From an uncultured Psychroserpens sp. (lineage in GTDB: Bacteria > Bacteroidota > Bacteroidia > Flavobacteriales > Flavobacteriaceae): DNA of 64,000 bases. Positions 16,303 to 31,086 of the stretch are shown piece after piece; position 1 is the first letter of the stretch; every line of letters begins with the position of its first letter. Position numbers and translations under genes: made by a program. The stretch is from contig CANLEE010000001.1 in NCBI GenBank assembly GCA_947489585.1, forward strand, positions 364,946 through 428,945, in the 5' to 3' direction. The notes below the pieces were generated by a model. The model saw only the letters and a list, made by a program, of their open reading frames with translations, was not told the origin of the DNA and did no database searches.

Positions 16303-17757
16303 ATGAAAAAGTCATACATAGATTTACACTGCCATCCAGCATTAAAACCTTTCGGAAAGAGTTTTAAGTATTCTCCTACCAAACAAAATAATCTTAATAG
16401 TGGTAGAAAAAACTCCATTTGGCATTATAGCCCACCAAATTTTGTAGAACGACAATTCAATAAAATATTAACGTTGACAAAATTCACGCAAACCGATTTG
16501 ACCGCTTTAGCGAAAGCCAATTGCAACGTTGTTGTGATAGCCCTATATCCTTTTGAAAAACACTTCTTAAAAGACAAAATGTTAGGTGTAAAATTTCTTC
16601 CAGATTTATTAGTCAATCTGGCCGCAGGCGTGAGCCAAAAACGTATTGATAATTTGAGAAATCACAACAGTTATTTTCAAGATTTAAAAGACGAATACGA
16701 TTTCTACAAGCAATTAGATAATTTTGCTCAAATCATTGACGGTGTCACTTACACATATCGCTTAGTCAATAATTACACAGAAATATCAACTAATATCACC
16801 ACCTCAACTTCAGATAGAAAAATCATAAGCCTCGTCCCTACTATTGAAGGCGGTCATGCATTTGAAACAGGTTTAGATAAAGACAAAGATACAGCCAATG
16901 AAACAACGGTTTTAAATAATATAGACACTGTAAAAAACTGGGAACATAAACCTTTTTTCTTAACCTTAGCACATCATTTTTATAATGAAATTTGTGGTCA
17001 TGCTAGAAGCATCAGTATTGGATTGATAAAGAAGAATCAAAATCGCGGACTTAACACTGATATTACCGATTTAGGGTTTAAGGTCATTGATAAATTATTA
17101 GACAATTCTGATAACAAACGCATTCTCATTGATATCAAACATATGAGTACTGCAGCTAGAAAAACATACTATAAACTATTAGAAACCACTTATGCAAATG
17201 AAAACATACCTATAATAGTGAGCCATGGTGCAGCTAATGGAAGACGTTCTATTGTAGAATGGGATGTTTCTGACTCAAAGCAAAGTCAATATTTCACACA
17301 AGATGACATTAATATTTATGATTCTGAAATCTTGCGTATTGCAAAATCAAAAGGTATTTTTGGCTTGCAATTAGATGAACGACGCATAGCCAGTAAAAAA
17401 GCAATTGCAAGTTCTAGAATCTATTGGCCTAGTAAAAAGAGACGTTATAGAAATAAAGCCGATTTAATCTGGAGACAAATTAGGCATATTGCTGAATTGT
17501 TAGATAAAAATGGATTATTTTGCTGGGAAACTATAGCCATTGGCTCAGATTTTGACGGCATTGTAAATCCGATAAAAGGTCTTTGGACGGCTGAGAACCT
17601 TAAAGATATCAAACCCTATCTTATTGAAAAGGCGGAGGATTATCTTAAAAAATATAAGTCAAACTTGCAACCACAAAATCAAATTTCAGCAAGTGAAATT
17701 ATAGATCGTGTGTTATTTATAAATGCAAATGAATTTTTAAAGACATACTTCAAGTAA
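16303..17757 (+). CDS. M19-like (membrane dipeptidase) amidohydrolase
   Basis: DLHCH, TIEGGH, IDIKHMS, SHG and IGSDFDG metal-ligand motifs. Confidence 0.75.
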   Translation: MKKSYIDLHCHPALKPFGKSFKYSPTKQNNLNSGRKNSIWHYSPPNFVERQFNKILTLTKFTQTDLTALAKANCNVVVIALYPFEKHFLKDKMLGVKFLPDLLVNLAAGVSQKRIDNLRNHNSYFQDLKDEYDFYKQLDNFAQIIDGVTYTYRLVNNYTEISTNITTSTSDRKIISLVPTIEGGHAFETGLDKDKDTANETTVLNNIDTVKNWEHKPFFLTLAHHFYNEICGHARSISIGLIKKNQNRGLNTDITDLGFKVIDKLLDNSDNKRILIDIKHMSTAARKTYYKLLETTYANENIPIIVSHGAANGRRSIVEWDVSDSKQSQYFTQDDINIYDSEILRIAKSKGIFGLQLDERRIASKKAIASSRIYWPSKKRRYRNKADLIWRQIRHIAELLDKNGLFCWETIAIGSDFDGIVNPIKGLWTAENLKDIKPYLIEKAEDYLKKYKSNLQPQNQISASEIIDRVLFINANEFLKTYFK

Positions 17758-17779
17758 TAATAAAATTATTCAGAAAAAT

Positions 17780-18253
17780 ATGACAGATAAAGAGATATTC
17801 ATGAAAGAGGCGGTTAATGCTGCTCTAAAAGGAATGAACAATAATGAAGGTGGCCCTTTTGGATGTGTCATTGTTAAAGATGGCAAAATCATAGGACGAG
17901 GCAATAATAAAGTAACATCTACTAATGACCCAACTGCTCACGCCGAAGTGACTGCAATAAGAGACGCTTGTAAAAACCTAGATTCATTTCAATTAGAAGG
18001 CTGTGAAATTTACACCTCTTGTGAACCTTGCCCAATGTGTTTAGGTGCTATTTATTGGGCACGACCAGACAAAGTATATTATGGAAGCAATCAAGTTGAC
18101 GCTGCAAATATTGGCTTTGACGACGAGTTTATTTATAAAGAAATTCCATTACCATACGAAAAACGAAGCATCCCGTTTGAACAATTAGCTCGAGAGATTG
18201 CATTAAAACCATTTCAGGAATGGACTAAAAAAGAAGATAAAACTGAATACTAA
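17780..18253 (+). CDS. guaD: Guanine deaminase (cytidine-deaminase fold, B. subtilis GuaD type)
   Basis: GGPFG, DPTAHAEV, EPCPMCLGAIYWAR, GFDD; directly upstream of xdhA. Confidence 0.85.
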   Translation: MTDKEIFMKEAVNAALKGMNNNEGGPFGCVIVKDGKIIGRGNNKVTSTNDPTAHAEVTAIRDACKNLDSFQLEGCEIYTSCEPCPMCLGAIYWARPDKVYYGSNQVDAANIGFDDEFIYKEIPLPYEKRSIPFEQLAREIALKPFQEWTKKEDKTEY

Positions 18254-18256
18254 TCA

Positions 18257-19669
18257 ATGATAAGCTTCATCCTCAATAATAAAACCATTAAAACACAAGA
18301 GCATTCTGGAATGACCTTACTTGATTTTGTGCGCTATGAACAACGTTTAACAGGTACCAAAATTGGTTGTCGCGAAGGCGATTGTGGTGCTTGTACAGTT
18401 TTGGTTGGAACTTTAAAGAATAACACTATTGAATACCAAAGTATTACATCGTGTATTTCACCTTTAGGAAATGCACATGGCAAGCATATTGTAACCGTTG
18501 AAGGCACGAATCTTAAAAACAAACTAACAACAGCGCAAGAAGCTATGAAAGCTAATTACGCAACACAATGTGGCTTCTGCACACCTGGATTTGTGGTATC
18601 ATTAACAGGCTTTGCTTTGTCAAATTCTGAAAAAAATTATAGTAATGCCTTGGATGCTATTAGTGGAAACATATGCAGATGTACTGGCTACAAAGCAATA
18701 GAAAAAGCAGCATATCAAGTCGTAGAACATTTAAAAGAGCACAAAGATTTACAGCCCTTTAGTTGGTTAATTGAAAACGGATTTATTCCTGAGTATTTCT
18801 CAACAATAACTGAACGTTTAAAAGATTTAGAAGTCAAAGACATCAATCAACCGAAAGGAAAATATGTGTCAGGCGGAACCGATTTATATGTGCAGCAAGC
18901 CGATCATTTAGCTGATAATTCAGTACATCTTATTGCTGAAAAAGATTATCTAAAAGGAATTCGTATTGAAGATAACATCTGTACAATTGGCACCAATTCA
19001 ACTGTATCTGACTTATGGAATCACAGTAAAATTAATAGCTATTTTCCTAATCTAAAGAAACATCTCAAGCTAGTTTCTTCTGAACAAATTAGAAACATGG
19101 CATCATTTGGCGGCAACTTGGTCAATGCCTCTCCAATTGGTGATATGACCATTTTCTTTTTAGCTCTTGATAGTGATATTACAATAACAGATGCAGATGA
19201 TAACGAACGTGTTGTTTCACTAAAAAACTTCTATCAATCTTATAAAACTTACGATTTAAAAGATGGTGAACTTTTAAAAAACATCCACTTTAAATTACCA
19301 AATAAGCAATCATTTTTCAATTTCGAAAAAGTCTGTAAGCGAACACATTTAGATATTGCAAGTGTCAATTCAGCTATTCATATATCTATTGAGAATAATA
19401 CTATTTCAGAAGCACATGTATCAATTGGTGGTGTAGCTGCTATCCCAAAATATCTACACGAAACTTCAAAGTTTTTAACTGGAAAACTGTTGTCTTCAAA
19501 CACGATACTTGAAGCAAGCAAGGTACTTCAAAATGAAATTTCGCCTATAAGTGATGTTCGTGGAACTAGTGATTATAAACGTCTTTTAGGGCGACAACTG
19601 TTCTTTGCACATTTCACAGAATTATTTCCGAAGCAATTCACTTTAAACGATTTTGTACACCATGCATAA
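18257..19669 (+). CDS. xdhA: Xanthine dehydrogenase small subunit (2Fe-2S + FAD)
   Basis: GCREGDCGAC, QCGFCTPG, GNICRCTGY, GGTDL, NASPIGD. Confidence 0.93.
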   Translation: MISFILNNKTIKTQEHSGMTLLDFVRYEQRLTGTKIGCREGDCGACTVLVGTLKNNTIEYQSITSCISPLGNAHGKHIVTVEGTNLKNKLTTAQEAMKANYATQCGFCTPGFVVSLTGFALSNSEKNYSNALDAISGNICRCTGYKAIEKAAYQVVEHLKEHKDLQPFSWLIENGFIPEYFSTITERLKDLEVKDINQPKGKYVSGGTDLYVQQADHLADNSVHLIAEKDYLKGIRIEDNICTIGTNSTVSDLWNHSKINSYFPNLKKHLKLVSSEQIRNMASFGGNLVNASPIGDMTIFFLALDSDITITDADDNERVVSLKNFYQSYKTYDLKDGELLKNIHFKLPNKQSFFNFEKVCKRTHLDIASVNSAIHISIENNTISEAHVSIGGVAAIPKYLHETSKFLTGKLLSSNTILEASKVLQNEISPISDVRGTSDYKRLLGRQLFFAHFTELFPKQFTLNDFVHHA

Positions 19670-21995
19670 GCACAAACCAAATAACAGATTAGATTCTAAA
19701 TTAGATGCGGTATCAATTTCGATAAAACAAAGCATTAAAAATTTAGATTCATTCACTCATGTTCGTGGCGAATCACTGTATGTCGATGATGTTAATATCA
19801 GACAAGGCACATTTCACGCCGTTGTTTTTGATTCACCTAAAGCGCATGGTAAAATAACACATATCGATTATTCTAAAGCAGAAGCATTAGAAGGTGTTGA
19901 ACGCATTTTTACCTATAAAGATATTCCAGGTAAAAATCAAATTGGAGGTATCATACCTGACGAACCTTTATTTGCTGAAGACGACGTCCATTTTTGGGGA
20001 ATGCCAATTGCATTGATTGTTGCCCAATCTGAATTCATAGCTAGAAAAGCAAGAGACTTAATTGAAATCGAAATTGAAGAGTTGCCAGTTATCACTACTG
20101 CAAAACAAGCCAAAGCAAAAGGAAGTTTCATTAATGCGCCAAGATCATTTACTATGGGTGATACTGAAAAAGGCTTCAATAATTGTGACTATATTTATGA
20201 AGGTGAAACCTTCTCAAACGGACAAGAGCATTTATATATTGAATCTCAAGGCGCCTATGCCGAACCTTTAGAAAACGGAAACATAAAAATCACCTCTTCA
20301 ACGCAAGGACCTACAGCTGTTCAAAAAACGGTTGCTCAGGTTTTGGGTGTTGCTATGCATAAAATTGAAGTCGATGTCACGCGTCTTGGTGGTGGATTTG
20401 GAGGCAAAGAAGATCAAGCGACACCATGGGCTGTGATGGCTGCTCTAGCAACTTATCATTTAAATCAGTCGGTAAAATTGATATTAAATCGACATGATGA
20501 TTTACGAATGACAGGGAAACGCCATCCTTATGAAAGCACATATAAAATTGGATTATCAAAAGACTTAAAAATTTTAGCTTACGAAGCAGAGTTTCTTCAA
20601 AATTCTGGTGCTGCAGCCGATTTATCGCCAGCAATTGCTGAACGCACTTTGTTTCACGCAACCAACAGTTATTTTGTTCCAAATGTGGAAACCACAGTTA
20701 TCAGTTGCAAAACAAATCTACCTCCAAATACAGCCTTTCGTGGATTTGGAGGACCACAAGGCATGTTTGTCATAGAATCTGCCATTGCAAAGGCGGCATA
20801 TGAAATTGGCGTGTCTCCTAGAGCTATTCAAGAGGCTAATCTATTAAATGAGAATGACACCTTTTCTTATGGTCAAATTGCCAAAAAAGTAGAAGCTAAA
20901 AACACTTGGGATTCTGCGAAAGCTATATTCAATAGTGAAGCTTTAGAATTGGAGGTAGAAAATTTCAATAAGAACAATTCAAACTTCAAAAAAGGACTAG
21001 CTTTTATGCCAATCACTTTTGGTATTTCATTTACGAATACACCAATGAATCATGCTCGTGCTTTGGTTCATATCTATTTAGATGGAAGCGTTGGAATAAG
21101 TACTGCTGCCGTTGAAATGGGACAAGGCGTCAATACTAAAATGATGCAAATTGCTGCACAAGTGTTTTCCATTCCTATTGAAAAAATAAAGATTGAAACC
21201 ACCAATACAACTCGAGTGGCAAACACCTCTCCTTCTGCCGCAAGTTCTACAGCAGATTTAAACGGAAAAGCGACATTAAAAGCTTGTAATGCTTTACTCA
21301 AAAGGTTAAAGCAAGTTGCTTCTGAAGATTTAGACGTTTCCGAAGAACATATCGAATTGAAAGATGAATATGTTTATATCAATAATAAAAAATCAGAGTT
21401 ATCATGGACAGAACTCATCAATAAAACAATGCTTAAACGTGTGGCTTTAACAGAGAATGCACATTATGCAACTCCTGAAATTCACTTTGATAAAACCAAA
21501 GAAAAAGGACACCCTTTTGCCTATCACGTCTACGGAACAGCTATCATTACAACAACTGTAGATTGTACTCGTGGCACTTATGAATTTGACTCAGTTAAAA
21601 TTGTTCATGACTATGGAAAAAGTATGAGTGAAGGTATTGATCTAGGTCAAGTTGAAGGTGCATTAGTTCAAGGCATAGGTTGGATGACAATGGAAGAGAT
21701 TGCCTATAATGATGAAGGCCGATTACAGTCTAACGCCTTATCAACCTATAAAATTCCAGATATCTTTTCGGTGCCTAAAATTGTAGATGTAATTCCTGTA
21801 GAAACTAAAGGTCACGACTTAGCTATTTTAAAATCTAAAGCTGTTGGAGAACCACCATTGATGTATGGTATTGGCGCTTATTTTGCACTTCAGAATGCAA
21901 TAAAAGCCTTCAATCCAAAATACAATTTAAAATTTCACGCCCCAATGACTCCTGAAAAGGTGCTGATGAGTTTATACGAAAACAATCACGTTTAA
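19662..21995 (+). CDS. xdhB: Xanthine dehydrogenase molybdopterin-binding subunit
   Basis: QEHLYIE, GGGFGGKE, AFRGFGGPQG, EMGQG, KAVGEPP with catalytic Glu. ATG at 19662 overlaps the xdhA stop. Confidence 0.95.
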   Translation: MHKHKPNNRLDSKLDAVSISIKQSIKNLDSFTHVRGESLYVDDVNIRQGTFHAVVFDSPKAHGKITHIDYSKAEALEGVERIFTYKDIPGKNQIGGIIPDEPLFAEDDVHFWGMPIALIVAQSEFIARKARDLIEIEIEELPVITTAKQAKAKGSFINAPRSFTMGDTEKGFNNCDYIYEGETFSNGQEHLYIESQGAYAEPLENGNIKITSSTQGPTAVQKTVAQVLGVAMHKIEVDVTRLGGGFGGKEDQATPWAVMAALATYHLNQSVKLILNRHDDLRMTGKRHPYESTYKIGLSKDLKILAYEAEFLQNSGAAADLSPAIAERTLFHATNSYFVPNVETTVISCKTNLPPNTAFRGFGGPQGMFVIESAIAKAAYEIGVSPRAIQEANLLNENDTFSYGQIAKKVEAKNTWDSAKAIFNSEALELEVENFNKNNSNFKKGLAFMPITFGISFTNTPMNHARALVHIYLDGSVGISTAAVEMGQGVNTKMMQIAAQVFSIPIEKIKIETTNTTRVANTSPSAASSTADLNGKATLKACNALLKRLKQVASEDLDVSEEHIELKDEYVYINNKKSELSWTELINKTMLKRVALTENAHYATPEIHFDKTKEKGHPFAYHVYGTAIITTTVDCTRGTYEFDSVKIVHDYGKSMSEGIDLGQVEGALVQGIGWMTMEEIAYNDEGRLQSNALSTYKIPDIFSVPKIVDVIPVETKGHDLAILKSKAVGEPPLMYGIGAYFALQNAIKAFNPKYNLKFHAPMTPEKVLMSLYENNHV

Positions 21996-21998
21996 AGT

Positions 21999-22568
21999 AT
22001 GAAAGTAGAAATAAACGAGACTATTTTTGATACGTTCCCAGAATTAGAAAGTGAACGATTACTTTATAAAGCTTATAAAAAAGAAGATGCTAAAACGCTT
22101 TTGAATATGAGAAGCCACAAAGCTGTTTCAAAGTATATGGATACAACAATTCCAAAACGTGTTGAAGACACAGAAAAACGAATTGAAGGGTATCAAAATG
22201 CATTCAATGAAAATAAAGGAATCACTTGGGCTATTATTGAAAAAATAAGCAATCATCTTATAGGTGATTTTGGTATTTGGCGAATTGATAGACAAAATTG
22301 CAGAGGCGAAATTGGTTATATTTTACATCCCGATTTTTGGAAAAAAGGCTATATGACCGAAGCCATGAATACATTAATTCGTTATGGATTTAACGAATTA
22401 AATCTTCATAGTTATGAAGCCAATGTGAATATTAACAATGAAAACTCAAAAGCCTTATTGCTTAAGTTTGGGTTTAAATTGGAAGCTCATTTTAGGGAAA
22501 ATTTTTACTATGACGGTCAGTTTTTAGATAGTGAGATCTATTGTTTGATAAAATCAGACATCACATAA
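21999..22568 (+). CDS. GNAT N-acetyltransferase, RimJ/RimL family
   Basis: FPELESERL, EIGYILHPDFWKKGYMTEA, NENSKALLLKFGF. Confidence 0.85.
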   Translation: MKVEINETIFDTFPELESERLLYKAYKKEDAKTLLNMRSHKAVSKYMDTTIPKRVEDTEKRIEGYQNAFNENKGITWAIIEKISNHLIGDFGIWRIDRQNCRGEIGYILHPDFWKKGYMTEAMNTLIRYGFNELNLHSYEANVNINNENSKALLLKFGFKLEAHFRENFYYDGQFLDSEIYCLIKSDIT

Positions 22569-22581
22569 TTAGTATTCATTT

Positions 22582-23922
22582 ATGACAGAATTTTTAATAC
22601 ATAGCGAACGTTGCTTTATTGATCAAGGGTTTCTTGAAGCCACGCTTCACATTAAAAATCATAAAATTCATGACATCTACGAAGGCTATCATGTCATTGA
22701 AAAGGTTCCTTTTTTAGATTATGAGAATCTCATTGTCATGCCTGGAATAATTGATGCTCATGTTCATATTAATGACCCAGGACGTGAAGACTGGGAAGGT
22801 TTTGACACGGCTACTAAAGCAGCAGCCATTGGAGGAATCACAACACTTATCGAAATGCCGCTAAACGCAAGTCCCGTGACTACAAATGTGAAAGCATTTA
22901 AACTCAAACAAGAAGCATCAAAAGATAAACTTCATGTAAATTGTGGGTTTTATGGAGGAATCATTCCATCAAATAAAAATGACATTGAAGATCTAATAAA
23001 CGAAGGTATTTTTGGCATCAAAGGGTTTTTAGCACATTCTGGAATTGATGAGTTTCCTAATATTTCAAAACTAGATTTAGAAGCCATTGCTCCTATGCTA
23101 AAAAAACACAATATTCCATTACTATTGCACTGTGAATTAACAGACAACCATGTTCCAGAAATCACAAATTCAAAAAGTTATCAAGAGTATTTACATTCAA
23201 GACCGCAACACTGGGAAACCAATGCTATTGATTTAGCTATAGATATTCAAAAACGGTTTGATATAAAAGTGCATATCGTTCACCTTTCTGCTTCGGAAGG
23301 TATTAAACAAATTAAGCAACATAAGCAAGAAACTAATAAACTGACCGTTGAAACTTGTCCGCACTATTTGTATTTTGATGCTGAAACTATTCCAGATGAA
23401 TCTCCAATTTATAAATGTGCGCCTCCAATTAGAGAGAAGACAAATAATGATACACTTTGGAACTTTTTATTAGATGATGGCTTTAATTTTTTGGCCTCAG
23501 ATCATTCCCCTGCACCGCCAGAACGCAAACAATTAGAAAGTGGTGATTTTTTTAAAGCTTGGGGCGGAATTTCAGGATTGCAGTTCTCATTACCTGTATT
23601 ATATTCTGAAGGAAAAAGAAGAGGATTATCAGCTGAAAAATTAATTTTATTACTCACAAAAAAACCCGCAGAATTCTTAGGGTTAGATGACAAAAAAGGT
23701 GTTTTAGCTGTCGGTTTTGATGCAGATATTACAGTTTGGGACAATGCGCAAGAATTTCAAATAACAGAAGATGCTATTCAACATAAACATAAAGCAACAC
23801 CATATTTAAACGAAACGGTATTTGGAAAAGTAATTCATACATTTGTTAATGGTGTTCAAGTGGTTGAGAATTCAAATTTAAAAACACTTCAACAAGGAAA
23901 ATTATTATTAAAAGATAAATGA
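22582..23922 (+). CDS. allB: Allantoinase
   Basis: PGIIDAHVHINDPG, HCE, HIVHLS, ETCPHY, KCAPPIR, SDHSP, WGGISGLQ. Confidence 0.93.
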   Translation: MTEFLIHSERCFIDQGFLEATLHIKNHKIHDIYEGYHVIEKVPFLDYENLIVMPGIIDAHVHINDPGREDWEGFDTATKAAAIGGITTLIEMPLNASPVTTNVKAFKLKQEASKDKLHVNCGFYGGIIPSNKNDIEDLINEGIFGIKGFLAHSGIDEFPNISKLDLEAIAPMLKKHNIPLLLHCELTDNHVPEITNSKSYQEYLHSRPQHWETNAIDLAIDIQKRFDIKVHIVHLSASEGIKQIKQHKQETNKLTVETCPHYLYFDAETIPDESPIYKCAPPIREKTNNDTLWNFLLDDGFNFLASDHSPAPPERKQLESGDFFKAWGGISGLQFSLPVLYSEGKRRGLSAEKLILLLTKKPAEFLGLDDKKGVLAVGFDADITVWDNAQEFQITEDAIQHKHKATPYLNETVFGKVIHTFVNGVQVVENSNLKTLQQGKLLLKDK

Positions 23923-24917
23923 TAGAAGAGAAACTAAAACAATATATTGACCTCGCTTCAGAAAAAATTGGCGGACAAGTATTATATGCGACTGACGACT
24001 TTTTTGCTGAAAAAGAGAATCTCATAAAGGAAGGTCGAGGCATTTTTATTCCAGACAAATACACCGAATTTGGCAAATGGATGGACGGCTGGGAGTCCAG
24101 ACGAAAAAGAACTCCTGGTCATGATTGGGCCATTTTAAAATTAGGTGCTGAAGGAAAAATCAAAGGCTTTGATATTGATACAAATCATTTTTTAGGAAAT
24201 CACCCACCTCATGCTTCTGTTGAAGCGATTAACTTAAAAGAAGCTGTTTCTGATTGGAGTAAAGCTGATGATTTATCATGGGAAGAAGTTTTACCAAAGT
24301 CGTCTCTAGACCCTGGAAGCCAACACTTTTTTGAAATCGATTCAGAAAAAAATTTTACACATGTTCGTTTACATATTTATCCTGATGGTGGTGTTGCTCG
24401 TTTTAGAGTTTATGGTGAAGTTTATAAAGATTGGTCTACAGTAAATTCTGAAGATCTTATTGATTTAGCATTGATAAATAATTGTGGGAAAGCTTTGCAT
24501 TGCAACGATATGTTTTTTAGTGTTATGGATAATCTTATTTCTCCAACTACAGGAAAAAATATGGGTGATGGCTGGGAAACTAAGCGTAACCGAACACCTA
24601 ATAACGAAGATTTTGTAATCTTAAGATTAGGACATCCTGGAATAGTTCATAAAATTATAGTAGACACCAAACATTTTAAAGGAAACTATCCAGATTCTTG
24701 TGCCATTGATGTTTGCAATTGTGATAGTGATGATGATGTTTTAAATGGCAATCACGAATGGAAACCATTATTACCTCAGCAAAAATTAGAAGCAGATAGA
24801 GAGCATCATTTTGAAAATGAGATTTTGCGAACAGAACAACCCATTACGCATGTTAAACTGAAAATATATCCAGATGGAGGCGTGAGTAGGTTACGTATTA
24901 TTGGAACTATTAAATAA
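23919..24917 (+). CDS. alc: Allantoicase
   Basis: Two-repeat architecture with DGWESRRKR and DGWETKR, PDGGVARFRV and PDGGVSRLRI, FKGNYP. Confidence 0.95.
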   Translation: MIEEKLKQYIDLASEKIGGQVLYATDDFFAEKENLIKEGRGIFIPDKYTEFGKWMDGWESRRKRTPGHDWAILKLGAEGKIKGFDIDTNHFLGNHPPHASVEAINLKEAVSDWSKADDLSWEEVLPKSSLDPGSQHFFEIDSEKNFTHVRLHIYPDGGVARFRVYGEVYKDWSTVNSEDLIDLALINNCGKALHCNDMFFSVMDNLISPTTGKNMGDGWETKRNRTPNNEDFVILRLGHPGIVHKIIVDTKHFKGNYPDSCAIDVCNCDSDDDVLNGNHEWKPLLPQQKLEADREHHFENEILRTEQPITHVKLKIYPDGGVSRLRIIGTIK

Positions 24918-24922
24918 ATTAA

Positions 24923-26326
24923 ATGATTGAAGTAATCTTACTTATTGCTTGGCTTGTTATTTTTTCAGTAATTGTTTCTGCTACCTATAAATTACACCAT
25001 TCAATTAAAGAGCTAAAAGCTCAAGGGAATGATGAAAAAGCAGATGCGATTCAAACATCACAAAATTGGTTTTATGCTTTAATTGTAGTTGCCTCAATAG
25101 GTGGAATTGGAATTTTATATCTATTCTTAAAAGGTACTATCTACGAAAGTCACTTTTTTGAATGGCTAAATTTAAGTGTCAGGCTAATCCACATTACTTT
25201 TGGTATTGCATGGATTGGTGCTTCTTTCTATTTTGTATTTTTAGAAAATGCATTAAATCGAACCGAAAACGTAAGAGACGAATTGGCTGGAAACCTTTGG
25301 GCTGTCCATGGTGGTGGTTTTTACTATGTTGAAAAATACAAACTCGCTCCTAAAAAAATTCCAAAACATTTACATTGGTTTAAATATGAAGCGTATTTCA
25401 CATGGCTTTCTGGCTTTTGTTTACTCTCGATTGTATATTATTTTAATGCTACATCCTATTTAATAGACCCAGAAGTTTTAGATATTTTACCCTCTACAGC
25501 TATAACAATTAGTATAGCCTCTTTAATTATTGGTTGGGTTTTGTATGATCAAATTTGTAAACGTTTAAGCAATAATAAAGTTGTATTTACTTTAGCAATA
25601 ACAGCTTTAGTTTTTCTTTTTGCATGGTTTTATGCACAAGTATTTAGTGGTCGTGCTGCATATATTCATTTTGGTGCTTTTTTAGGGACTTTAATGGCAG
25701 CTAATGTGTTTTTTATTATAATTCCTGGGCAAAAACGTATGGTTGCTGCAGCAAAAAAAGGATTAGCTCCAAATCCAGCTGATGGCAAAGCTGCTGGTTT
25801 ACGCTCTTATACTAACAACTATTTTACACTTCCTGTATTATTTGTAATGATAAGTAATCATTTTCCAAGTACTTTTGGAAATACATACCAATGGTTGGTA
25901 CTTATTGGTATTACTTTAGGAACAGCTGGAGTAAAACATTATTTAAACATTCGCGAGAAGGGCGAGCTTTCTGTTTGGGTTATGCCTATTTCGGTAGTTA
26001 TTTTATTTGGCATGGCATTTATGACTGCTCCTACACCACCAAAATATGAAAATTGCCAAGAAATTGTTTCCTTTACAGAAGTGCAAACGATTATTAATAA
26101 CAGATGTACAACGTGTCATTCATCAAATCCAACAGATGCTGTCTGGAAAGTTGCACCTAATGGCATAAAATATGATACCGCTGAACAGATTTTCAATTTA
26201 CGAGATAAGATTTTTCAACGTGTAGTCGTAAGTAAAAACATGCCGTTTAATAATAATCAAACTGGGATGACTCAGGAAGAACGCGACATGATTAATTGCT
26301 GGATTAATCAAGGCGCACCAAAATAA
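24923..26326 (+). CDS. puuD: Membrane urate hydroxylase with C-terminal cytochrome c (PuuD family)
   Basis: AWIGASFYF, WAVHGGGFY, WFKYEAYFTWLSGF, NNYFTLPVLFVMISNHF, CTTCH heme motif. Confidence 0.92.
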   Translation: MIEVILLIAWLVIFSVIVSATYKLHHSIKELKAQGNDEKADAIQTSQNWFYALIVVASIGGIGILYLFLKGTIYESHFFEWLNLSVRLIHITFGIAWIGASFYFVFLENALNRTENVRDELAGNLWAVHGGGFYYVEKYKLAPKKIPKHLHWFKYEAYFTWLSGFCLLSIVYYFNATSYLIDPEVLDILPSTAITISIASLIIGWVLYDQICKRLSNNKVVFTLAITALVFLFAWFYAQVFSGRAAYIHFGAFLGTLMAANVFFIIIPGQKRMVAAAKKGLAPNPADGKAAGLRSYTNNYFTLPVLFVMISNHFPSTFGNTYQWLVLIGITLGTAGVKHYLNIREKGELSVWVMPISVVILFGMAFMTAPTPPKYENCQEIVSFTEVQTIINNRCTTCHSSNPTDAVWKVAPNGIKYDTAEQIFNLRDKIFQRVVVSKNMPFNNNQTGMTQEERDMINCWINQGAPK

Positions 26327-26331
26327 AGATT

Positions 26332-27201
26332 ATGATAACACTAAACGAACTTAATTCAACTTCTGAACTAGAAGCCTTTTCTAAACTAGAACAATGTTGT
26401 GTCTCTAAGACTTGGATTAACAAACTGGTTCAGAGTAGACCTTTTTCTTCTGAAAATGAATTGATAAAAACAGCAGCTTCCATTTGGTATAATGACTGTA
26501 CAGTCGAAGATTTCAAAGAAGCATTCACAGGCCATCCAAAAATTGGAAATGTAGATAGTTTAAAAGAAAAGTTTGCACATACAGCTGAATGGGCTGGAAA
26601 CGAACAATCAAAAGTTGCTGATGCCAATATGGAAACCATAGAGGCTTTAGCAAAAGCAAATGAATTATATGAAGATAAGTTTGGATACATTTTTATTGTC
26701 AGTGCAAGTGGAAAATCTGCCGAAGAAATGCTCGCGATTATTAATACTAGATTGAATAATGACAATGAAGATGAAATTTATGTTGCCATGAATGAACAGC
26801 ATAAAATAACTGTCATTCGCTTAGCAAAACTTATAGAAGGCTTATCAGAGAACGCAGATTTAAGCAGCCATTTAACAACGCATGCTTTGGATACTTCAAT
26901 TGGTATTCCTGCAAGACACATGCTCATTACTTTAAAAGGTTTACGTAACAATCAATGGAAACCAATGAGTATAGGCATCACTAATAATGATGGTCGAATT
27001 TCAGATGTATTACCTCCTGGTAGGCTTTTAATCTCTGGGGTTTACAGCATGACTTTTGACACTGCAAGCTATTATAAAAACAATAATCAAAATGGTTTTT
27101 ACCCTGAAGCTTCAATTCAATTTGAAGTCACAGATAGTAGTCATTACCATATTCCATTACTAATTAATCCTTTTGGATATTCGACATATAGAGGAAGTTA
27201 A
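26332..27201 (+). CDS. uraD: OHCU decarboxylase fused to HIU hydrolase (UraD-UraH)
   Basis: N-terminal AFTGHPKIG, EQS and YEDKFGYIFIV motifs (UraD); C-terminal TTHALDTSIG, DGR and YHIPLLINPFGYSTYRGS motifs (transthyretin-like UraH). Confidence 0.9.
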   Translation: MITLNELNSTSELEAFSKLEQCCVSKTWINKLVQSRPFSSENELIKTAASIWYNDCTVEDFKEAFTGHPKIGNVDSLKEKFAHTAEWAGNEQSKVADANMETIEALAKANELYEDKFGYIFIVSASGKSAEEMLAIINTRLNNDNEDEIYVAMNEQHKITVIRLAKLIEGLSENADLSSHLTTHALDTSIGIPARHMLITLKGLRNNQWKPMSIGITNNDGRISDVLPPGRLLISGVYSMTFDTASYYKNNNQNGFYPEASIQFEVTDSSHYHIPLLINPFGYSTYRGS

Positions 27202-27211
27202 AACACTAATA

Positions 27212-27274
27212 GGTCTCGACTGCGCTCGGCCTGACAAGTAGCATTTAGATGTCTCCTCGAGCGCAGTCGAGAGG
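27212..27274. repeat. REP-like inverted doublet
   Basis: TCTCGACTGCGCTCG (27214-27228) and its exact reverse complement CGAGCGCAGTCGAGA (27258-27272); each 25-bp unit reads TGTCnnnnCGAGCGCAGTCGAGAnn; GC-rich in an AT-rich background. Confidence 0.8.
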
Positions 27275-27293
27275 TGAAAATAAAATTACAAGC

Positions 27294-28727
27294 ATGAATT
27301 TAAGTATTTCAGAAGATAAAAAATCAGCCATTTTTGACGATTTAAAAACGGCAAATCTAGCCTTTAATAAAATTTATAGAGGTGACAGAGAAGACAGACA
27401 ACCCATTCATACAGTTTATGGTGGCGCAAACCTTTTTAAGTCTAATACAACACAAGTTTTGGGGACTATTGCTTTAAAATCATTGTTGCATTATGCACCT
27501 AATTTTATTGAATTTGGGAAAGCTTTTAAACTAAAAGGAAGTAAAAAATTACCAACAAAACAAAAGAAACAGCAAAAACTCATACAAGAGTTAGAGGGTT
27601 TATCAAGTGAAGAATTAAAAAACCATCATGCTGGGTTTTCATATAACATCTACCAAAAAGTAATTGCAAAATTAAAAACTGAAGGTGTAGAAGACTTTAG
27701 AATCGATTTTGAAGATGGCTTCGGAAATCGTTCAGATAAAGAAGAAGATGACACAGCAATTTTTGCTGCAAAGGAAGTCGCGACTGGAATGACTGATGGC
27801 ACACTATCCCCTTTTATTGGTATTCGCATAAAACCTTTTACGGAAGAATTAAAACATCGCGGACAACGTACACTAGATTTATTTTTAACTACACTATTAA
27901 CAGAAACAAACGGAAAACTACCAGACAATTTTGTAGTAATGTTGCCTAAAGTAACTATTCCTGAACAAATCATCGCTTTAGTTTCCTTTTTTGAAGTGAT
28001 TGAAGACACCTTCAATTTAAAATCTGGAACACTTAAAATGGAAATGATGGTAGAAACCACGCAATCCATAATGGATCACAATGGAACAAACCCACTATTT
28101 AGATTTATAGCTGCAAGTAAAGGGCGTTGCATTGCAACACATTTTGGGACATACGATTACACCGCTTCAAATAACATCACTGCCTCTTATCAAGAAATGG
28201 ATCATGATGTTTGTGATTATGCACATTATACCACAAAAGTGGCACTAGCGCATACCGGAATTTGGTTATCCGATGGCGCAACCAATACGATGCCTATTGG
28301 CCCTCATCGTGGTGACTTAACTGAAGAACAAGAAAAAGAGAACAAGGATGTTGTACATCGTTCTTGGCTTAAAGGTTATGAACATATTCGTCATTCATTA
28401 TACAAAGGTTTATACCAAGGTTGGGATTTAAATCCAGCGCAATTGCCAATGCGTTACACTGCGGTTTATGCGTTCTTTTTAGAAAGTTATGATGATGCGG
28501 TTTTACGTTTAAAAACCTTTGTAGAGAAAGCAGCACAAGCCACTTTAATTGGGGATACGTTTGATGATGCTGCAACAGGACAAGGCCTTTTAAATTACTT
28601 TTTAAAAGCTTTAAATAGTGGCGCTATCACCATTGATGAAGTATTAGCAACAGGTTTAACCTTAGATGAAATTAGAACACGATCGTTCGCAAAAATTTTA
28701 AAGGATAGACGTGCTAAATTGAAGTAA
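27294..28727 (+). CDS. CitE/HpcH-like TIM-barrel lyase (DUF6986 type)
   Basis: QPIHTVYGGA, RIDFEDG, GIRIK, LPKV, MVET, GTYDY, LSDGATN, QGWDLNPAQLP. Start set at ATG 27294 because the ORF-track start lies inside the REP. Confidence 0.75.
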   Translation: MNLSISEDKKSAIFDDLKTANLAFNKIYRGDREDRQPIHTVYGGANLFKSNTTQVLGTIALKSLLHYAPNFIEFGKAFKLKGSKKLPTKQKKQQKLIQELEGLSSEELKNHHAGFSYNIYQKVIAKLKTEGVEDFRIDFEDGFGNRSDKEEDDTAIFAAKEVATGMTDGTLSPFIGIRIKPFTEELKHRGQRTLDLFLTTLLTETNGKLPDNFVVMLPKVTIPEQIIALVSFFEVIEDTFNLKSGTLKMEMMVETTQSIMDHNGTNPLFRFIAASKGRCIATHFGTYDYTASNNITASYQEMDHDVCDYAHYTTKVALAHTGIWLSDGATNTMPIGPHRGDLTEEQEKENKDVVHRSWLKGYEHIRHSLYKGLYQGWDLNPAQLPMRYTAVYAFFLESYDDAVLRLKTFVEKAAQATLIGDTFDDAATGQGLLNYFLKALNSGAITIDEVLATGLTLDEIRTRSFAKILKDRRAKLK

Positions 28728-28729
28728 GT

Positions 28730-29221
28730 TTAAATCAATTTTGTTAAATCCTTTTTATCTAATAACTGGTACTTAGAAATTTTATAATGTCGAATTATAT
28801 GCTCCAATAGTGAAGTTCTCACTACTAATATAAGATGATGATTTAGGTTTAATTGATAGCTATTAATAATAGTTATTGCTGACTCATGCAAACCAATATT
28901 TTTAAGTTCAAGTTTCCCTAGTTCATCAATAATTACATAATTGTAGGCTCTTTTATCATTAACGTCAATTAAATACTCATTTGCTTTCTGAAACGATGAT
29001 TTTAAAAATCGAAAGGGGCCAACTGATACTATTTGGGAATTATCAACACCTTTTTGAATTTCAAGAGGATACGTGTCTTTCGATTTAATATTCAAAAAAT
29101 AGCGCTCCCCTTTGTCATCATCAGGACACAATACACCATCGACATCATATCGACCGTTACACCAATCTAAAAGGGCAGATGTCTTTCCTGTTCTAACGTT
29201 TCCTGTTAAGATGTAAATCAT
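28730..29221 (-). CDS. Small P-loop NTPase (THEP1/DUF2478-like)
   Basis: ILTGNVRTGKTS Walker A and VIIDELGKLE Walker B. Confidence 0.75.
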   Translation of the reverse strand: MIYILTGNVRTGKTSALLDWCNGRYDVDGVLCPDDDKGERYFLNIKSKDTYPLEIQKGVDNSQIVSVGPFRFLKSSFQKANEYLIDVNDKRAYNYVIIDELGKLELKNIGLHESAITIINSYQLNLNHHLILVVRTSLLEHIIRHYKISKYQLLDKKDLTKLI

Positions 29222-30225
29222 TCTGAAGTCACTTTAAAATGAATACAATTAGAAATGCTATTCGCCATAAAATACTTAAAACGTGTATAACCTTTCAAAT
29301 GTTTGGTCTCCTTCCAAGTGTAAGAAATAATATGCCTAAAATATGGAAACAAATCCATTGCATTGGTAATGTCTTCTTTGTATTGCGATTCTTTTTTATT
29401 CAAATATTTACGAACCAACTTCAATAATAAAGGTCCTAAAACTAAATACCAGAGCATTAAAATCAAAAAACTTCTTAACACAATATAAACGGCTTTTTGC
29501 CATCCAAATAATGGTCCGCCAAAAACGTAAAATGCTAATACAATTAGGGCAATCGTAATTAACCACACCCAAATAACTTTCGCTCTAAAAGACACATTCT
29601 TCTTTGCATCTTCTGAAATTAAATCACTTGGATGTAACTCAAAAACAGCGTGCTCCTTTTGACTAATAATAGTCATAATATGTTTTATAAAAATTCCTGC
29701 TAAAACCCCACCAATTCCATAAACGAAAAGATAAATCGTAATCAAAACTGACGTTGCAGAAGTTTCTGAAACAAAGCTCATTTTATTTTGAATCCAAGCA
29801 CCATAAATATTTATGGCTTCCCATAGTTCTGTTCCGTAAACCACAGTTAATACAATCAATTTTTGAAAAGCAGATTGCAAAAACGTCACAATTCCTAACA
29901 CAATTAGTGTGGCGCCTTTCCATGATAAATTAGAAAACAAAAACGCACCAAAAACCGCCTGAAAACTTACAGAAATATAAGCTGCAAATGGTGAATATGG
30001 GCTGACAGCCATTTTTATAATTAAGACTATAATAAGGGCTTTTAAAATCGCTTGCCATTTGTTTTCGGCATAATAAGCAATTAAACTAATCAATAAAATA
30101 GCAATGCCGCCAACAATCAATCCTGTAAAAGGCGAATTAAAGACATGTAAAAACCCACCAAGACCAGACTCATTTAAAGCCCAGAGTGCTGTTAGCTTGT
30201 CTATAATAGATTTGTTAGTCTTCAT
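29218..30225 (-). CDS. Multi-pass membrane protein of unknown function
   Basis: About 8 hydrophobic segments; LWALNESGLGGFLH-x3-PFTG N-terminal motif; overlaps both neighbours. Confidence 0.75.
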   Translation of the reverse strand: MKTNKSIIDKLTALWALNESGLGGFLHVFNSPFTGLIVGGIAILLISLIAYYAENKWQAILKALIIVLIIKMAVSPYSPFAAYISVSFQAVFGAFLFSNLSWKGATLIVLGIVTFLQSAFQKLIVLTVVYGTELWEAINIYGAWIQNKMSFVSETSATSVLITIYLFVYGIGGVLAGIFIKHIMTIISQKEHAVFELHPSDLISEDAKKNVSFRAKVIWVWLITIALIVLAFYVFGGPLFGWQKAVYIVLRSFLILMLWYLVLGPLLLKLVRKYLNKKESQYKEDITNAMDLFPYFRHIISYTWKETKHLKGYTRFKYFMANSISNCIHFKVTSE

Positions 30226-30991
30226 TCTTGTAATGCACTTCTAGTAATTGTGCCGCAACGCTAATGGCTATTTCTTTAGGTGTATCTCCTCCAACTTGCA
30301 ATCCAATTGGACAAACGACATTACGCATGCCTTCTTCAATATTCATCTCTTTTATGAGCATATTATTAAATCGAACACGTTTGGTTTTACTTCCTATTAA
30401 ACCTAAAAACTTGGTGTCATTTTGAAGTGACATCGCGACGATTTCAAAATCAATGGAATGATCATGAGTTAATACTAATATATAGCAGTTTTTTCCCCAT
30501 TTCACAACATCTCTAAAAGTCTTGAAATTATCAATATCAACTTGACAACAATTGATGCTTTCATCTAATGTTGAATTTTTAAACCAATCTGGACGTGAAT
30601 CGATAAGATTAACGGTAAAAGGTGTATCGACTAATATTTTGGCAATTTCATATCCAATATGTCCGGCGCCAAATAAAAATAATTCTGGTGATTGATTCAT
30701 AGGTTCTATTATAAATTCAACTTTTCCACCACAGCATTGTTCAAACTCTGGCCCTAAAGTATAATTAGATTCAATAATTTTATTTTCGTGAAGTGCTATC
30801 AGAGCTTTTTCTGTAGCTAGAAACTCTAACTTCCCTCCTCCTATAGTGCCATGAAGTACTTTATCGTTGGTAATAATCATTCGAGACCCCAAAACACAAG
30901 GTGTTGACCCTAAGCACTTTGTAACCGTGACTAGAGCAACAGGTTGTTGCTGTTTTTTAAATTCTGATAAAAGTTCGATCCAATTCTTCAT
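30215..30991 (-). CDS. xdhC: Xanthine dehydrogenase accessory (Moco insertion) protein
   Basis: GSTP, GTIGGGKLE, CCGG, LFGAGHIG, VLTHDH, GLIGSKTKR, CPIG, PKEIAISVAAQ. ATG at 30991 preferred over TTG at 31000. Confidence 0.92.
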   Translation of the reverse strand: MKNWIELLSEFKKQQQPVALVTVTKCLGSTPCVLGSRMIITNDKVLHGTIGGGKLEFLATEKALIALHENKIIESNYTLGPEFEQCCGGKVEFIIEPMNQSPELFLFGAGHIGYEIAKILVDTPFTVNLIDSRPDWFKNSTLDESINCCQVDIDNFKTFRDVVKWGKNCYILVLTHDHSIDFEIVAMSLQNDTKFLGLIGSKTKRVRFNNMLIKEMNIEEGMRNVVCPIGLQVGGDTPKEIAISVAAQLLEVHYKNED

Positions 30992-31086
30992 TCTTAGCAA
31001 AAAGAGAATTTAAAAGTAAGACTTTTTTGTGCAAACCATATTTCATTTTTGTTATAAAAATAAATTAGCATTCTGCTAAATTTTCT

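Follow-up and report, generated by a model that had tools for sequence, protein, structure and literature searches.

A DUF6986 protein of the CitE/malate synthase superfamily as a candidate (S)-ureidoglycolate urea-lyase at the end of a urate catabolism operon in an uncultured Psychroserpens

The gene for the conversion of ureidoglycolate to glyoxylate is unassigned in most urate-degrading Bacteroidota, Actinomycetota, Myxococcota and Acidobacteriota, and the locus described here raises the question of which protein carries out this step. The locus lies in a 64,000-nucleotide stretch of DNA, referred to as the window, from an uncultured Psychroserpens sp. (Flavobacteriaceae; assembly GCA_947489585.1, contig CANLEE010000001.1, positions 364,946 to 428,945 of the forward strand). 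The window is AT-rich (~34% GC) and carries an operon for urate degradation that ends in a gene for a protein of the DUF6986 family (window positions 27294-28727, + strand, 477 amino acids (aa)). We propose that this protein is probably a Mg2+-dependent (S)-ureidoglycolate urea-lyase (EC 4.3.2.3) and would catalyse the final step in the operon's pathway from urate to glyoxylate. This candidate function rests on context, as DUF6986 follows allantoicase (alc) or (S)-ureidoglycine aminohydrolase (UGlyAH), lies beside malate synthase (aceB) or glyoxylate carboligase (gcl) genes and occurs where AllA is absent. The analysis shows the predicted fold of DUF6986, its conserved residues, its place in the operon, its phyletic coupling and the lack of AllA, and the substrate, products and mechanism are inferred.

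The gene was assigned by a full-length match of its product to PF22484 (567.7 bits against a gathering score of 27 bits, E=1.7e-170, profile positions 1-408 of 408). A longer open reading frame (ORF) opens at 27249. The start at 27294 is the likely one because homologues are 475-477 aa long and the segment 27249-27293 overlaps a repeat hairpin; judged from the sequence, a start at 27249 appears unlikely. The nearest protein cluster was 94% identical and is labelled uncultured Winogradskyella, and the names of the homologues point to a flavobacterium of marine origin. The gene is the last in a run of ten ORFs on the + strand that extends from 16303 to 28727 with intergenic gaps of -17 to +22 nucleotides (nt), except for 92 nt before DUF6986, and the gene 3' of it (28730-29221) is convergent on the - strand. 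The original prediction, made from the letters and their ORFs, had taken 27294-28727 to be the last gene of the operon, and both the coordinates and the position were upheld.

That prediction had also assigned the protein to the CitE/malyl-CoA lyase/malate synthase superfamily on the basis of five motifs. All five were present in the 477-aa numbering: DFEDG at 138-142, GIRIK at 176-180, LPKV at 217-220, ET at 254-255 and G-T-Y-D at 285-288. A further motif, FDDAAT at 423-428, was absent from its list. The gene and its putative catalytic motifs are placed in the window as follows.

27294..28727, + strand: DUF6986 gene, candidate (S)-ureidoglycolate urea-lyase (PF22484; AlphaFold (AF2) model; Foldseek)
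27705..27719, + strand: DFEDG (D138, E140, D141), invariant, corresponding to D42/E44/D45 of Rhodobacter sphaeroides malyl-CoA lyase
27819..27833, + strand: GIRIK (R178), invariant, motif spacing as in malyl-CoA lyase
28047..28061, + strand: MVETT (E254), predicted Mg2+ ligand, aligned to the Glu of IET/LIET
28140..28160, + strand: HFGTYDY (D288, predicted Mg2+ ligand; T286), from malyl-CoA lyase and malate synthase alignments
28560..28577, + strand: FDDAAT (D424, D425), motif match only, to the malate synthase 'EDAAT' lid

The residues of DFEDG and GIRIK, together with E254 and D288, were invariant in an alignment of 52 sequences down to 37% identity. The same catalytic residues were invariant in 13 sequences from at least five lineages, and in this comparison the lid motif had an invariant D424 and either D or E at position 425. 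The residues common to the CitE-like superfamily and the malate synthases have been described by Zarzycki and Kerfeld (PMC3832036) and are, in R. sphaeroides malyl-CoA lyase numbering, Asp42, Glu44, Asp45, Arg76, Glu141, Asp168 and the lid Asp299. Their DUF6986 counterparts are D138, E140, D141, R178, E254, D288 and D424/D425 with closely similar spacing, where the equivalences of D-x-E-D and R178 rest on motif and spacing rather than on structural superposition. In malyl-CoA lyase D42 orients the Arg and E44/D45 hold the Mg-bound waters (PMC3832036). R178 corresponds to Arg76 of malyl-CoA lyase and Arg338 of malate synthase G (PMC3832036), and the putative lid acid would correspond to D299 and D631 of the same two enzymes, with FDDAAT paired by motif only.

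Matches to the established families of the superfamily were below threshold. HpcH_HpaI (PF03328) scored 23.5 bits against a cut-off of 25 over residues 229-318 only, and MS_TIM-barrel scored 21.4 bits against a cut-off of 26.4 over residues 228-318. MS_N, MS_C and TIGR01344 did not match the window protein when searched with Pfam and NCBIfam, and neither did PF04115, the AllA-type family. A search of the PDB with the single window sequence found nothing, and a profile of the 52 sequences gave marginal matches to malyl-CoA lyases and malate synthases in which the core paired as LPKV with (I)PKV, MVET with (L)IET, HFGTYDY with FGVADY and GWDLNPAQ with W(A)IHPSQ. Alignment with hhalign to four canonical malate synthases covered 82 core columns at a probability of 28%, with the lid region outside the alignment. 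In this weak core alignment the Glu and the Asp that bind Mg in malate synthase paired with E254 and D288, respectively, and the Arg of G-R-W-D paired with T286, a position that is occupied by T, V, A, P, I, L or S in the family and never by Arg.

The AF2 model of the window protein had a pLDDT of 84.4 and a pTM of 0.82. Foldseek matched it, always at a probability of 1.0, to CitE-like proteins (3qqw, 3r4i), malate synthase A (3cv2, 3cuz), haloarchaeal malate synthase (5tao, 3oyz), malyl-CoA lyase (4l9z) and CLYBL (5vxc), with E values from 7e-8 to 1e-5 and TM scores of 0.63-0.70 on the CitE-like targets. The predicted model therefore has the fold of the CitE-like/malate synthase superfamily, a TIM barrel with a C-terminal lid. 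Together the motifs, their invariance and the predicted fold bear out the superfamily membership. On sequence grounds the window protein is thus assigned to the CitE/malate-synthase superfamily, yet by curated thresholds it is neither a malate synthase nor a member of the HpcH/CitE family.

The DUF6986 family comprised 2176 clusters at 50% identity with E<=1e-3 and 511 with E<=1e-30, and source names place it in Bacteroidota, Myxococcota, Acidobacteriota and Actinomycetota. Gene neighborhoods were compared across 81 Bacteroidota loci, the locus of the window (L001) included. DUF6986 was co-located with uraD/hiuH in 72 of these loci, with puuD in 60, allB in 55, alc in 38 and the large subunit gene of xanthine dehydrogenase (xdhL) in 34. 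It came after alc in 38 loci, or after allC and UGlyAH in 16-18. Clusters that lacked alc, as in Hymenobacter, Terrimonas and Niastella, had allantoate amidohydrolase and UGlyAH instead; both routes reach (S)-ureidoglycolate, and DUF6986 was the terminal gene in both.

The presence of DUF6986 was also coupled to urate catabolism across whole genomes. Among 301 complete Bacteroidota genomes there were 17 strong DUF6986 carriers, spanning 10 genera. All 17 encoded OHCU decarboxylase as compared to none of the other 284 (Fisher p=4e-28, kinship ignored). The same enzyme was found in 22 of the 23 strong carriers among 251 Actinomycetota genomes as compared to 31/228 of the others (p=4e-16). In the myxococcote Stigmatella (L082) an allB-alc-uraD-hiuH cluster lay 4.5 kb from DUF6986, and in a further lineage (L085) the gene was surrounded by genes for xanthine dehydrogenase, UGlyAH, hiuH, uraD, allC and allB. 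The operon, the co-location and the coupling to OHCU decarboxylase strongly support the link to purine catabolism that had been proposed from the window. Two apparent domain fusions, P0210 (a HIUase fragment with a truncated DUF6986) and P0221 (an Aldedh fragment with DUF6986), both looked like chimeric or truncated gene calls and were left unused as evidence.

The comparison of genomes also bears on which step the protein carries out. AllA was found in none of the 56 carrier genomes searched (0/17 Bacteroidota, 0/23 Actinomycetota and 0/16 further carriers), and it was rare overall (5/301 Bacteroidota and 4/251 Actinomycetota). The expected anti-correlation with allA therefore had the right direction, but AllA is too rare for statistical support (p=1.0). 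An anti-correlation with aceB had likewise been expected and the opposite was seen, as canonical malate synthase was enriched in the Bacteroidota carriers (9/17 as compared to 28/284 of the others).

Several Actinomycetota loci placed DUF6986 in one operon with enzymes that consume glyoxylate. In L096 the gene order was malic enzyme, malate synthase A (TIGR01344, 755 bits), DUF6986 (607 bits) and (S)-ureidoglycine aminohydrolase/UGLYAH2, with gaps of 23, 3 and 15 nt. In L107 it was alc, uraD, hiuH, uricase, DUF6986 and malate synthase. The true malate synthases of these two loci matched all three malate synthase domains. In L086-L088 and L102 DUF6986 was followed by uricase, a permease, uraD, hiuH, allB and then the glyoxylate carboligase/glycerate genes, namely hydroxypyruvate isomerase (hyi), tartronate semialdehyde reductase (glxR), gcl (TIGR01504, 1157 bits in L086-L088) and glycerate kinase (glxK). 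In those actinobacterial operons DUF6986 was the sole unassigned enzyme and ureidoglycolate to glyoxylate the sole unassigned step on the way from urate to malate, pyruvate or glycerate. As DUF6986 shares operons with glyoxylate consumers, it would act before glyoxylate. The actinobacterial proteins were 36-40% identical to the window protein overall with identical putative active-site residues, and because of this identity the actinobacterial inference should transfer to the window protein despite the overall divergence. The position beside aceB or the gcl pathway, together with the enrichment of malate synthase, argues against a substitute malate synthase and for ureidoglycolate cleavage. 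Of the original three-way proposal (a non-canonical malate synthase, a malyl-CoA lyase or a ureidoglycolate-cleaving enzyme) the ureidoglycolate-cleaving option gained from these neighbors, and the substitute malate synthase lost ground as malate synthase co-occurs with DUF6986.

The genome from which the window was taken is 99.8% complete and carries the full route from urate to ureidoglycolate. The purine catabolism genes of the operon are as follows.

17780..18253, + strand: CDA-fold deaminase, probably guanine deaminase (PF00383; linked in 24/81 loci)
18257-19669, + strand: xanthine dehydrogenase small subunit (Fe-S/FAD subunit by sequence; conserved in related loci)
19653-21995, + strand: xanthine dehydrogenase large subunit (Mo-binding subunit by sequence; conserved in related loci)
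22582..23922, + strand: allantoinase, allB (TIGR03178, 498 bits, cut-off 357.85)
23919..24917, + strand: allantoicase, alc (TIGR02961, 439.6 bits, cut-off 277.9; products ureidoglycolate and urea)
24923..26326, + strand: PuuD-type membrane urate oxidase (PF06181, 405.8 bits; C-terminal CTTCH motif)
26332..27201, + strand: fused OHCU decarboxylase/HIU hydrolase, uraD-hiuH (PF09349 and PF00576; TIGR03180, TIGR02962)

The operon had been described as lacking allA and malate synthase, and neither was found genome-wide: AllA (PF04115) was not found anywhere in this genome and malate synthase was not found apart from a weak match of DUF6986 itself. Isocitrate lyase, gcl, hyi, glxR and glxK were not found in the genome either. 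A role of DUF6986 in the glyoxylate shunt was rejected, as the genome is without isocitrate lyase. Urease was not found, and neither was a biotin protein of the size of urea carboxylase. From this genome alone it cannot be told whether the lyase or the glyoxylate sink is what is missing; the comparative data distinguish the two.

DUF6986 was compared with known systems that share its reaction, its fold or its genomic setting. The zebrafish malate-synthase-like protein DrMSL splits urea from ureidoglycolate in a Mg-dependent reaction that is specific for the (S) form, with a kcat/KM of 2.7e4 M-1 s-1 (Dembech et al., PNAS 2023, PMC10120013). It keeps the glyoxylate site and loses the acetyl-CoA site, with Arg276 of G-R-W-D changed to Ile, and its clade, the 'UGL group', was reported to hold only eukaryotic sequences (PMC10120013). 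DrMSL and DUF6986 are alike in superfamily fold, in the glyoxylate-binding/catalytic core and in the association with allantoicase/urate genes, and Mg2+ dependence would be expected for DUF6986 as well. In both the G-R-W-D Arg is lost, to Ile in DrMSL and to Thr286 in DUF6986. They differ in family: DrMSL (full length, ~62 kDa) belongs to the malate synthases proper, while DUF6986 is a separate bacterial family of 420-480 aa. DUF6986 falls outside the malate synthase orthogroup and the UGL clade, a placement that is based on the Pfam threshold and on the eukaryotic makeup of that clade (PMC10120013). As the families are separate, a function shared by the two would mean independent recruitment.

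The classical enzymes AllA and DAL3 (PF04115, cupin-type) share with DUF6986 the proposed EC 4.3.2.3 reaction and the pathway position, but have an unrelated fold and no sequence similarity. The best profile and structural matches of DUF6986 were to the malyl-CoA lyase/CitE-like proteins (Mcl1 4L9Y/4L9Z, Chloroflexus aurantiacus MCL and human CLYBL; PF03328), with which it shares identical catalytic/metal residues, seven if the putative lid acid is counted, at similar spacing and, in an aza-version, the proposed chemistry. It differs from them by ~125 additional residues at the N terminus, among them a helical insertion that separates the first barrel strand from the second, and by its context in purine catabolism rather than in C2/C3 CoA-ester pathways. 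Malate synthase A of allantoin clusters (yeast DAL7; actinobacterial aceB by allB/alc) resembles DUF6986 in standing at the end of a ureide operon, in its glyoxylate chemistry and in its fold. In this case the difference is that canonical aceB co-occurs with and adjoins DUF6986, and therefore the two are not interchangeable.

Several observations weigh against a dedicated ureidoglycolate lyase. About 29 of the 53 Actinomycetota genomes with OHCU decarboxylase were without both DUF6986 and AllA, and therefore other solutions to this step exist. DUF6986 also occurs outside purine clusters, in two Streptomyces-like loci (L092, L095) and in three divergent Bacteroidota loci (L111-L113). Judged from sequence, the catalytic residues that are kept would suit the chemistry of a malate synthase or a malyl-CoA lyase just as well. 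As this genome encodes neither urease nor a urea carboxylase-like protein, and neither malate synthase nor gcl, urea and glyoxylate have no known fate in it. In addition, ureidoglycolate decays spontaneously and allantoicase has been reported to act on it, and therefore a dedicated lyase is not strictly required.

The members outside purine clusters had features of their own. The genomes of L092 and L095 (G370 and G340) are large high-GC Actinomycetota genomes with OHCU decarboxylase elsewhere in the genome, and the neighbors of these two genes resemble electron-transfer flavoprotein and ROK-kinase genes by N-terminal sequence. L111-L113 (G068, G196, G212) form a divergent subgroup in Bacteroidota without OHCU decarboxylase; they were 35-42% identical to the window protein, scored ~1e-125 against the Pfam model and retained all the putative catalytic residues. 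The G196 copy lay between genes for an amidohydrolase and a 230-aa protein and molybdenum-cofactor genes.

A different role in ureide or 2-hydroxy-acid metabolism is unlikely on this evidence. DUF6986 could then be a lyase, aldolase or hydratase acting on oxalurate, an allantoate-derived compound or a glyoxylate adduct, with a pyruvate-dependent HpcH-type aldolase that uses glyoxylate included in the same low estimate. The superfamily is catalytically diverse and Foldseek matched CitE-like proteins of unknown function (3qqw, 3r4i), which fits such a role, as do the members outside purine clusters and the roughly half of OHCU-decarboxylase Actinomycetota genomes that are without DUF6986. However, the well-resolved operons have only the one gap, from ureidoglycolate to glyoxylate, with the other steps assigned, and the putative active-site residues were the same in clustered and non-clustered members among the 13 sequences compared.

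More doubtful is a CoA-dependent glyoxylate-condensing enzyme, in which case purine-derived glyoxylate would be removed by a minimal malate synthase or malyl-CoA lyase while ureidoglycolate is cleaved spontaneously or by allantoicase, in parallel to yeast DAL7 and Streptomyces aceB1 in allantoin clusters. The complete malate-synthase/malyl-CoA-lyase catalytic set is retained, with a putative lid acid included, and with malate synthase, isocitrate lyase and gcl/hyi/glxR/glxK missing the genome has nothing else that is known to consume glyoxylate. Of the 17 Bacteroidota carriers sampled, eight were without canonical malate synthase, and malate synthase genes in allantoin clusters have precedents (DAL7; PMC13751858). 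Against this, two Actinomycetota lineages (L096, L107) have canonical malate synthase A adjoining DUF6986 in the same operon, and the complete glyoxylate carboligase pathway beside DUF6986 in L086-L088 and L102 would make a second condensing enzyme redundant. The Bacteroidota carriers were enriched rather than depleted for canonical malate synthase, the protein fell below the malate-synthase thresholds of Pfam and NCBIfam with MS_N and MS_C absent, and the G-R-W-D Arg is replaced throughout the family.

The least probable reading is a bifunctional protein that expels urea from (S)-ureidoglycolate and joins the Mg-bound glyoxylate to acetyl-CoA to form malate (or malyl-CoA) with no free glyoxylate, which would fill both gaps of this genome, lyase and glyoxylate sink, with putative residues for condensation that are all retained and with an ancestor of this kind called plausible by Dembech et al. 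(PMC10120013), but which would be redundant beside aceB or gcl in Actinomycetota and has no parallel in the characterised zebrafish lyase, an enzyme without malate-synthase activity (PMC10120013). As this genome has neither urease nor a glyoxylate sink, the condensing and bifunctional roles both stay alive at low probability.

For the favored function, an (S)-ureidoglycolate urea-lyase, a mechanism can be proposed from the chemistry of the superfamily. Ureidoglycolate, H2N-CO-NH-CH(OH)-COO-, is the aza-analogue of the malyl moiety X-CO-CH2-CH(OH)-COO-, and therefore the catalytic set of the superfamily maps one-to-one onto the lyase reaction. In the retro-aldol proposal for malyl-CoA lyase the Arg mediates the loss of the proton from the Mg-bound hydroxyl, and the lid Asp donates a proton to the leaving atom (PMC3832036). 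In DUF6986, E254 and D288 would hold the Mg2+, with E140 and D141 holding its water ligands, and the carboxylate and alpha-hydroxyl of ureidoglycolate would chelate the metal. R178, oriented by D138, would accept or relay the hydroxyl proton. The C-N bond would then break with the lid acid (D424/D425) protonating the leaving ureido nitrogen, and urea would depart leaving glyoxylate bound to the metal.

Further features of the operon and its surroundings were the following.

16303-17757, + strand: M19-like hydrolase (weak Peptidase_M19 match, 47 bits, 484 aa)
21999..22568, + strand: GNAT acetyltransferase (PF13302, Acetyltransf_3)
27214..27272, + strand: GC-rich hairpin resembling a repetitive extragenic palindromic (REP) element (RNA fold -37.5 kcal/mol, z -5.8; in the 92-nt gap)
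30215..31000, - strand: XdhC molybdenum-cofactor insertion chaperone (PF13478, PF02625; linked in 38-43/81 loci)

The M19-like gene lies 22 nt before the deaminase gene and may be the first gene of the operon; it was found nearby in 0/80 related loci. The GNAT gene, 3 nt after xdhL and 13 nt before allB, was found in only 4/81 related loci. uraD and hiuH are fused here in that order and are separate adjoining genes in many related loci.

The hairpin in front of DUF6986 is GC-rich, in a genome whose GC content is 34%, and has a 16-bp stem. The 14-mer CTCGACTGCGCTCG within it was present at 5 sites across the genome, resembling a small REP-type repeat. It was also seen in one Hymenobacter locus (L067) and two Flavobacterium loci (L027, L050), 50-220 nt 5' of where DUF6986 starts. 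Possible explanations of the hairpin are a mobile intergenic repeat and a cis element controlling expression of the last gene. Scans for sigma-70 promoters and terminators gave results at or below chance, with models of this kind being ill-suited to Bacteroidota. Downstream, the segment 31165-36289 on the + strand encodes a CMD-family protein, a radical SAM protein with DUF3641, DUF2064, a SAM methyltransferase, a rhodanese, a second DUF2064 and then PNP_UDP_1. The first six of these genes look like a separate small-molecule modification cluster, and the last, a purine nucleoside phosphorylase, fits purine salvage.

A literature search found no publication on DUF6986, and a search for ureidoglycolate with citrate lyase found nothing relevant. 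In a review of October 2026 the classical AllA is the only ureidoglycolate lyase listed for bacteria. In databases the family appears as 'phosphoenolpyruvate kinase', 'citrate lyase beta subunit', 'aldolase' or 'aldolase/citrate lyase family protein', and none of these names was backed by a family-level match. DUF6986 is a candidate for a new enzyme family that carries out a known reaction.

If the protein were bifunctional, purine carbon would enter the tricarboxylic acid cycle without free glyoxylate. This would explain what genomes without AllA, malate synthase, isocitrate lyase and glyoxylate carboligase gain from the pathway, and would make DUF6986 a present-day case of the bifunctional ancestor, malate synthase and ureidoglycolate lyase in one, that has been postulated for eukaryotes. 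If the lyase function is true, a pathway hole would be closed in genome-scale models for bacteria of soil and sea, annotations in the thousands would be corrected and a third enzyme family would be added for one reaction. The malate-synthase/CitE scaffold would then have been recruited on two independent occasions for one C-N lyase chemistry. Urease was present in only 6 of 24 DUF6986 carrier genomes, and the 18 carriers without it sharpen the ecological question of how purine nitrogen is recovered.

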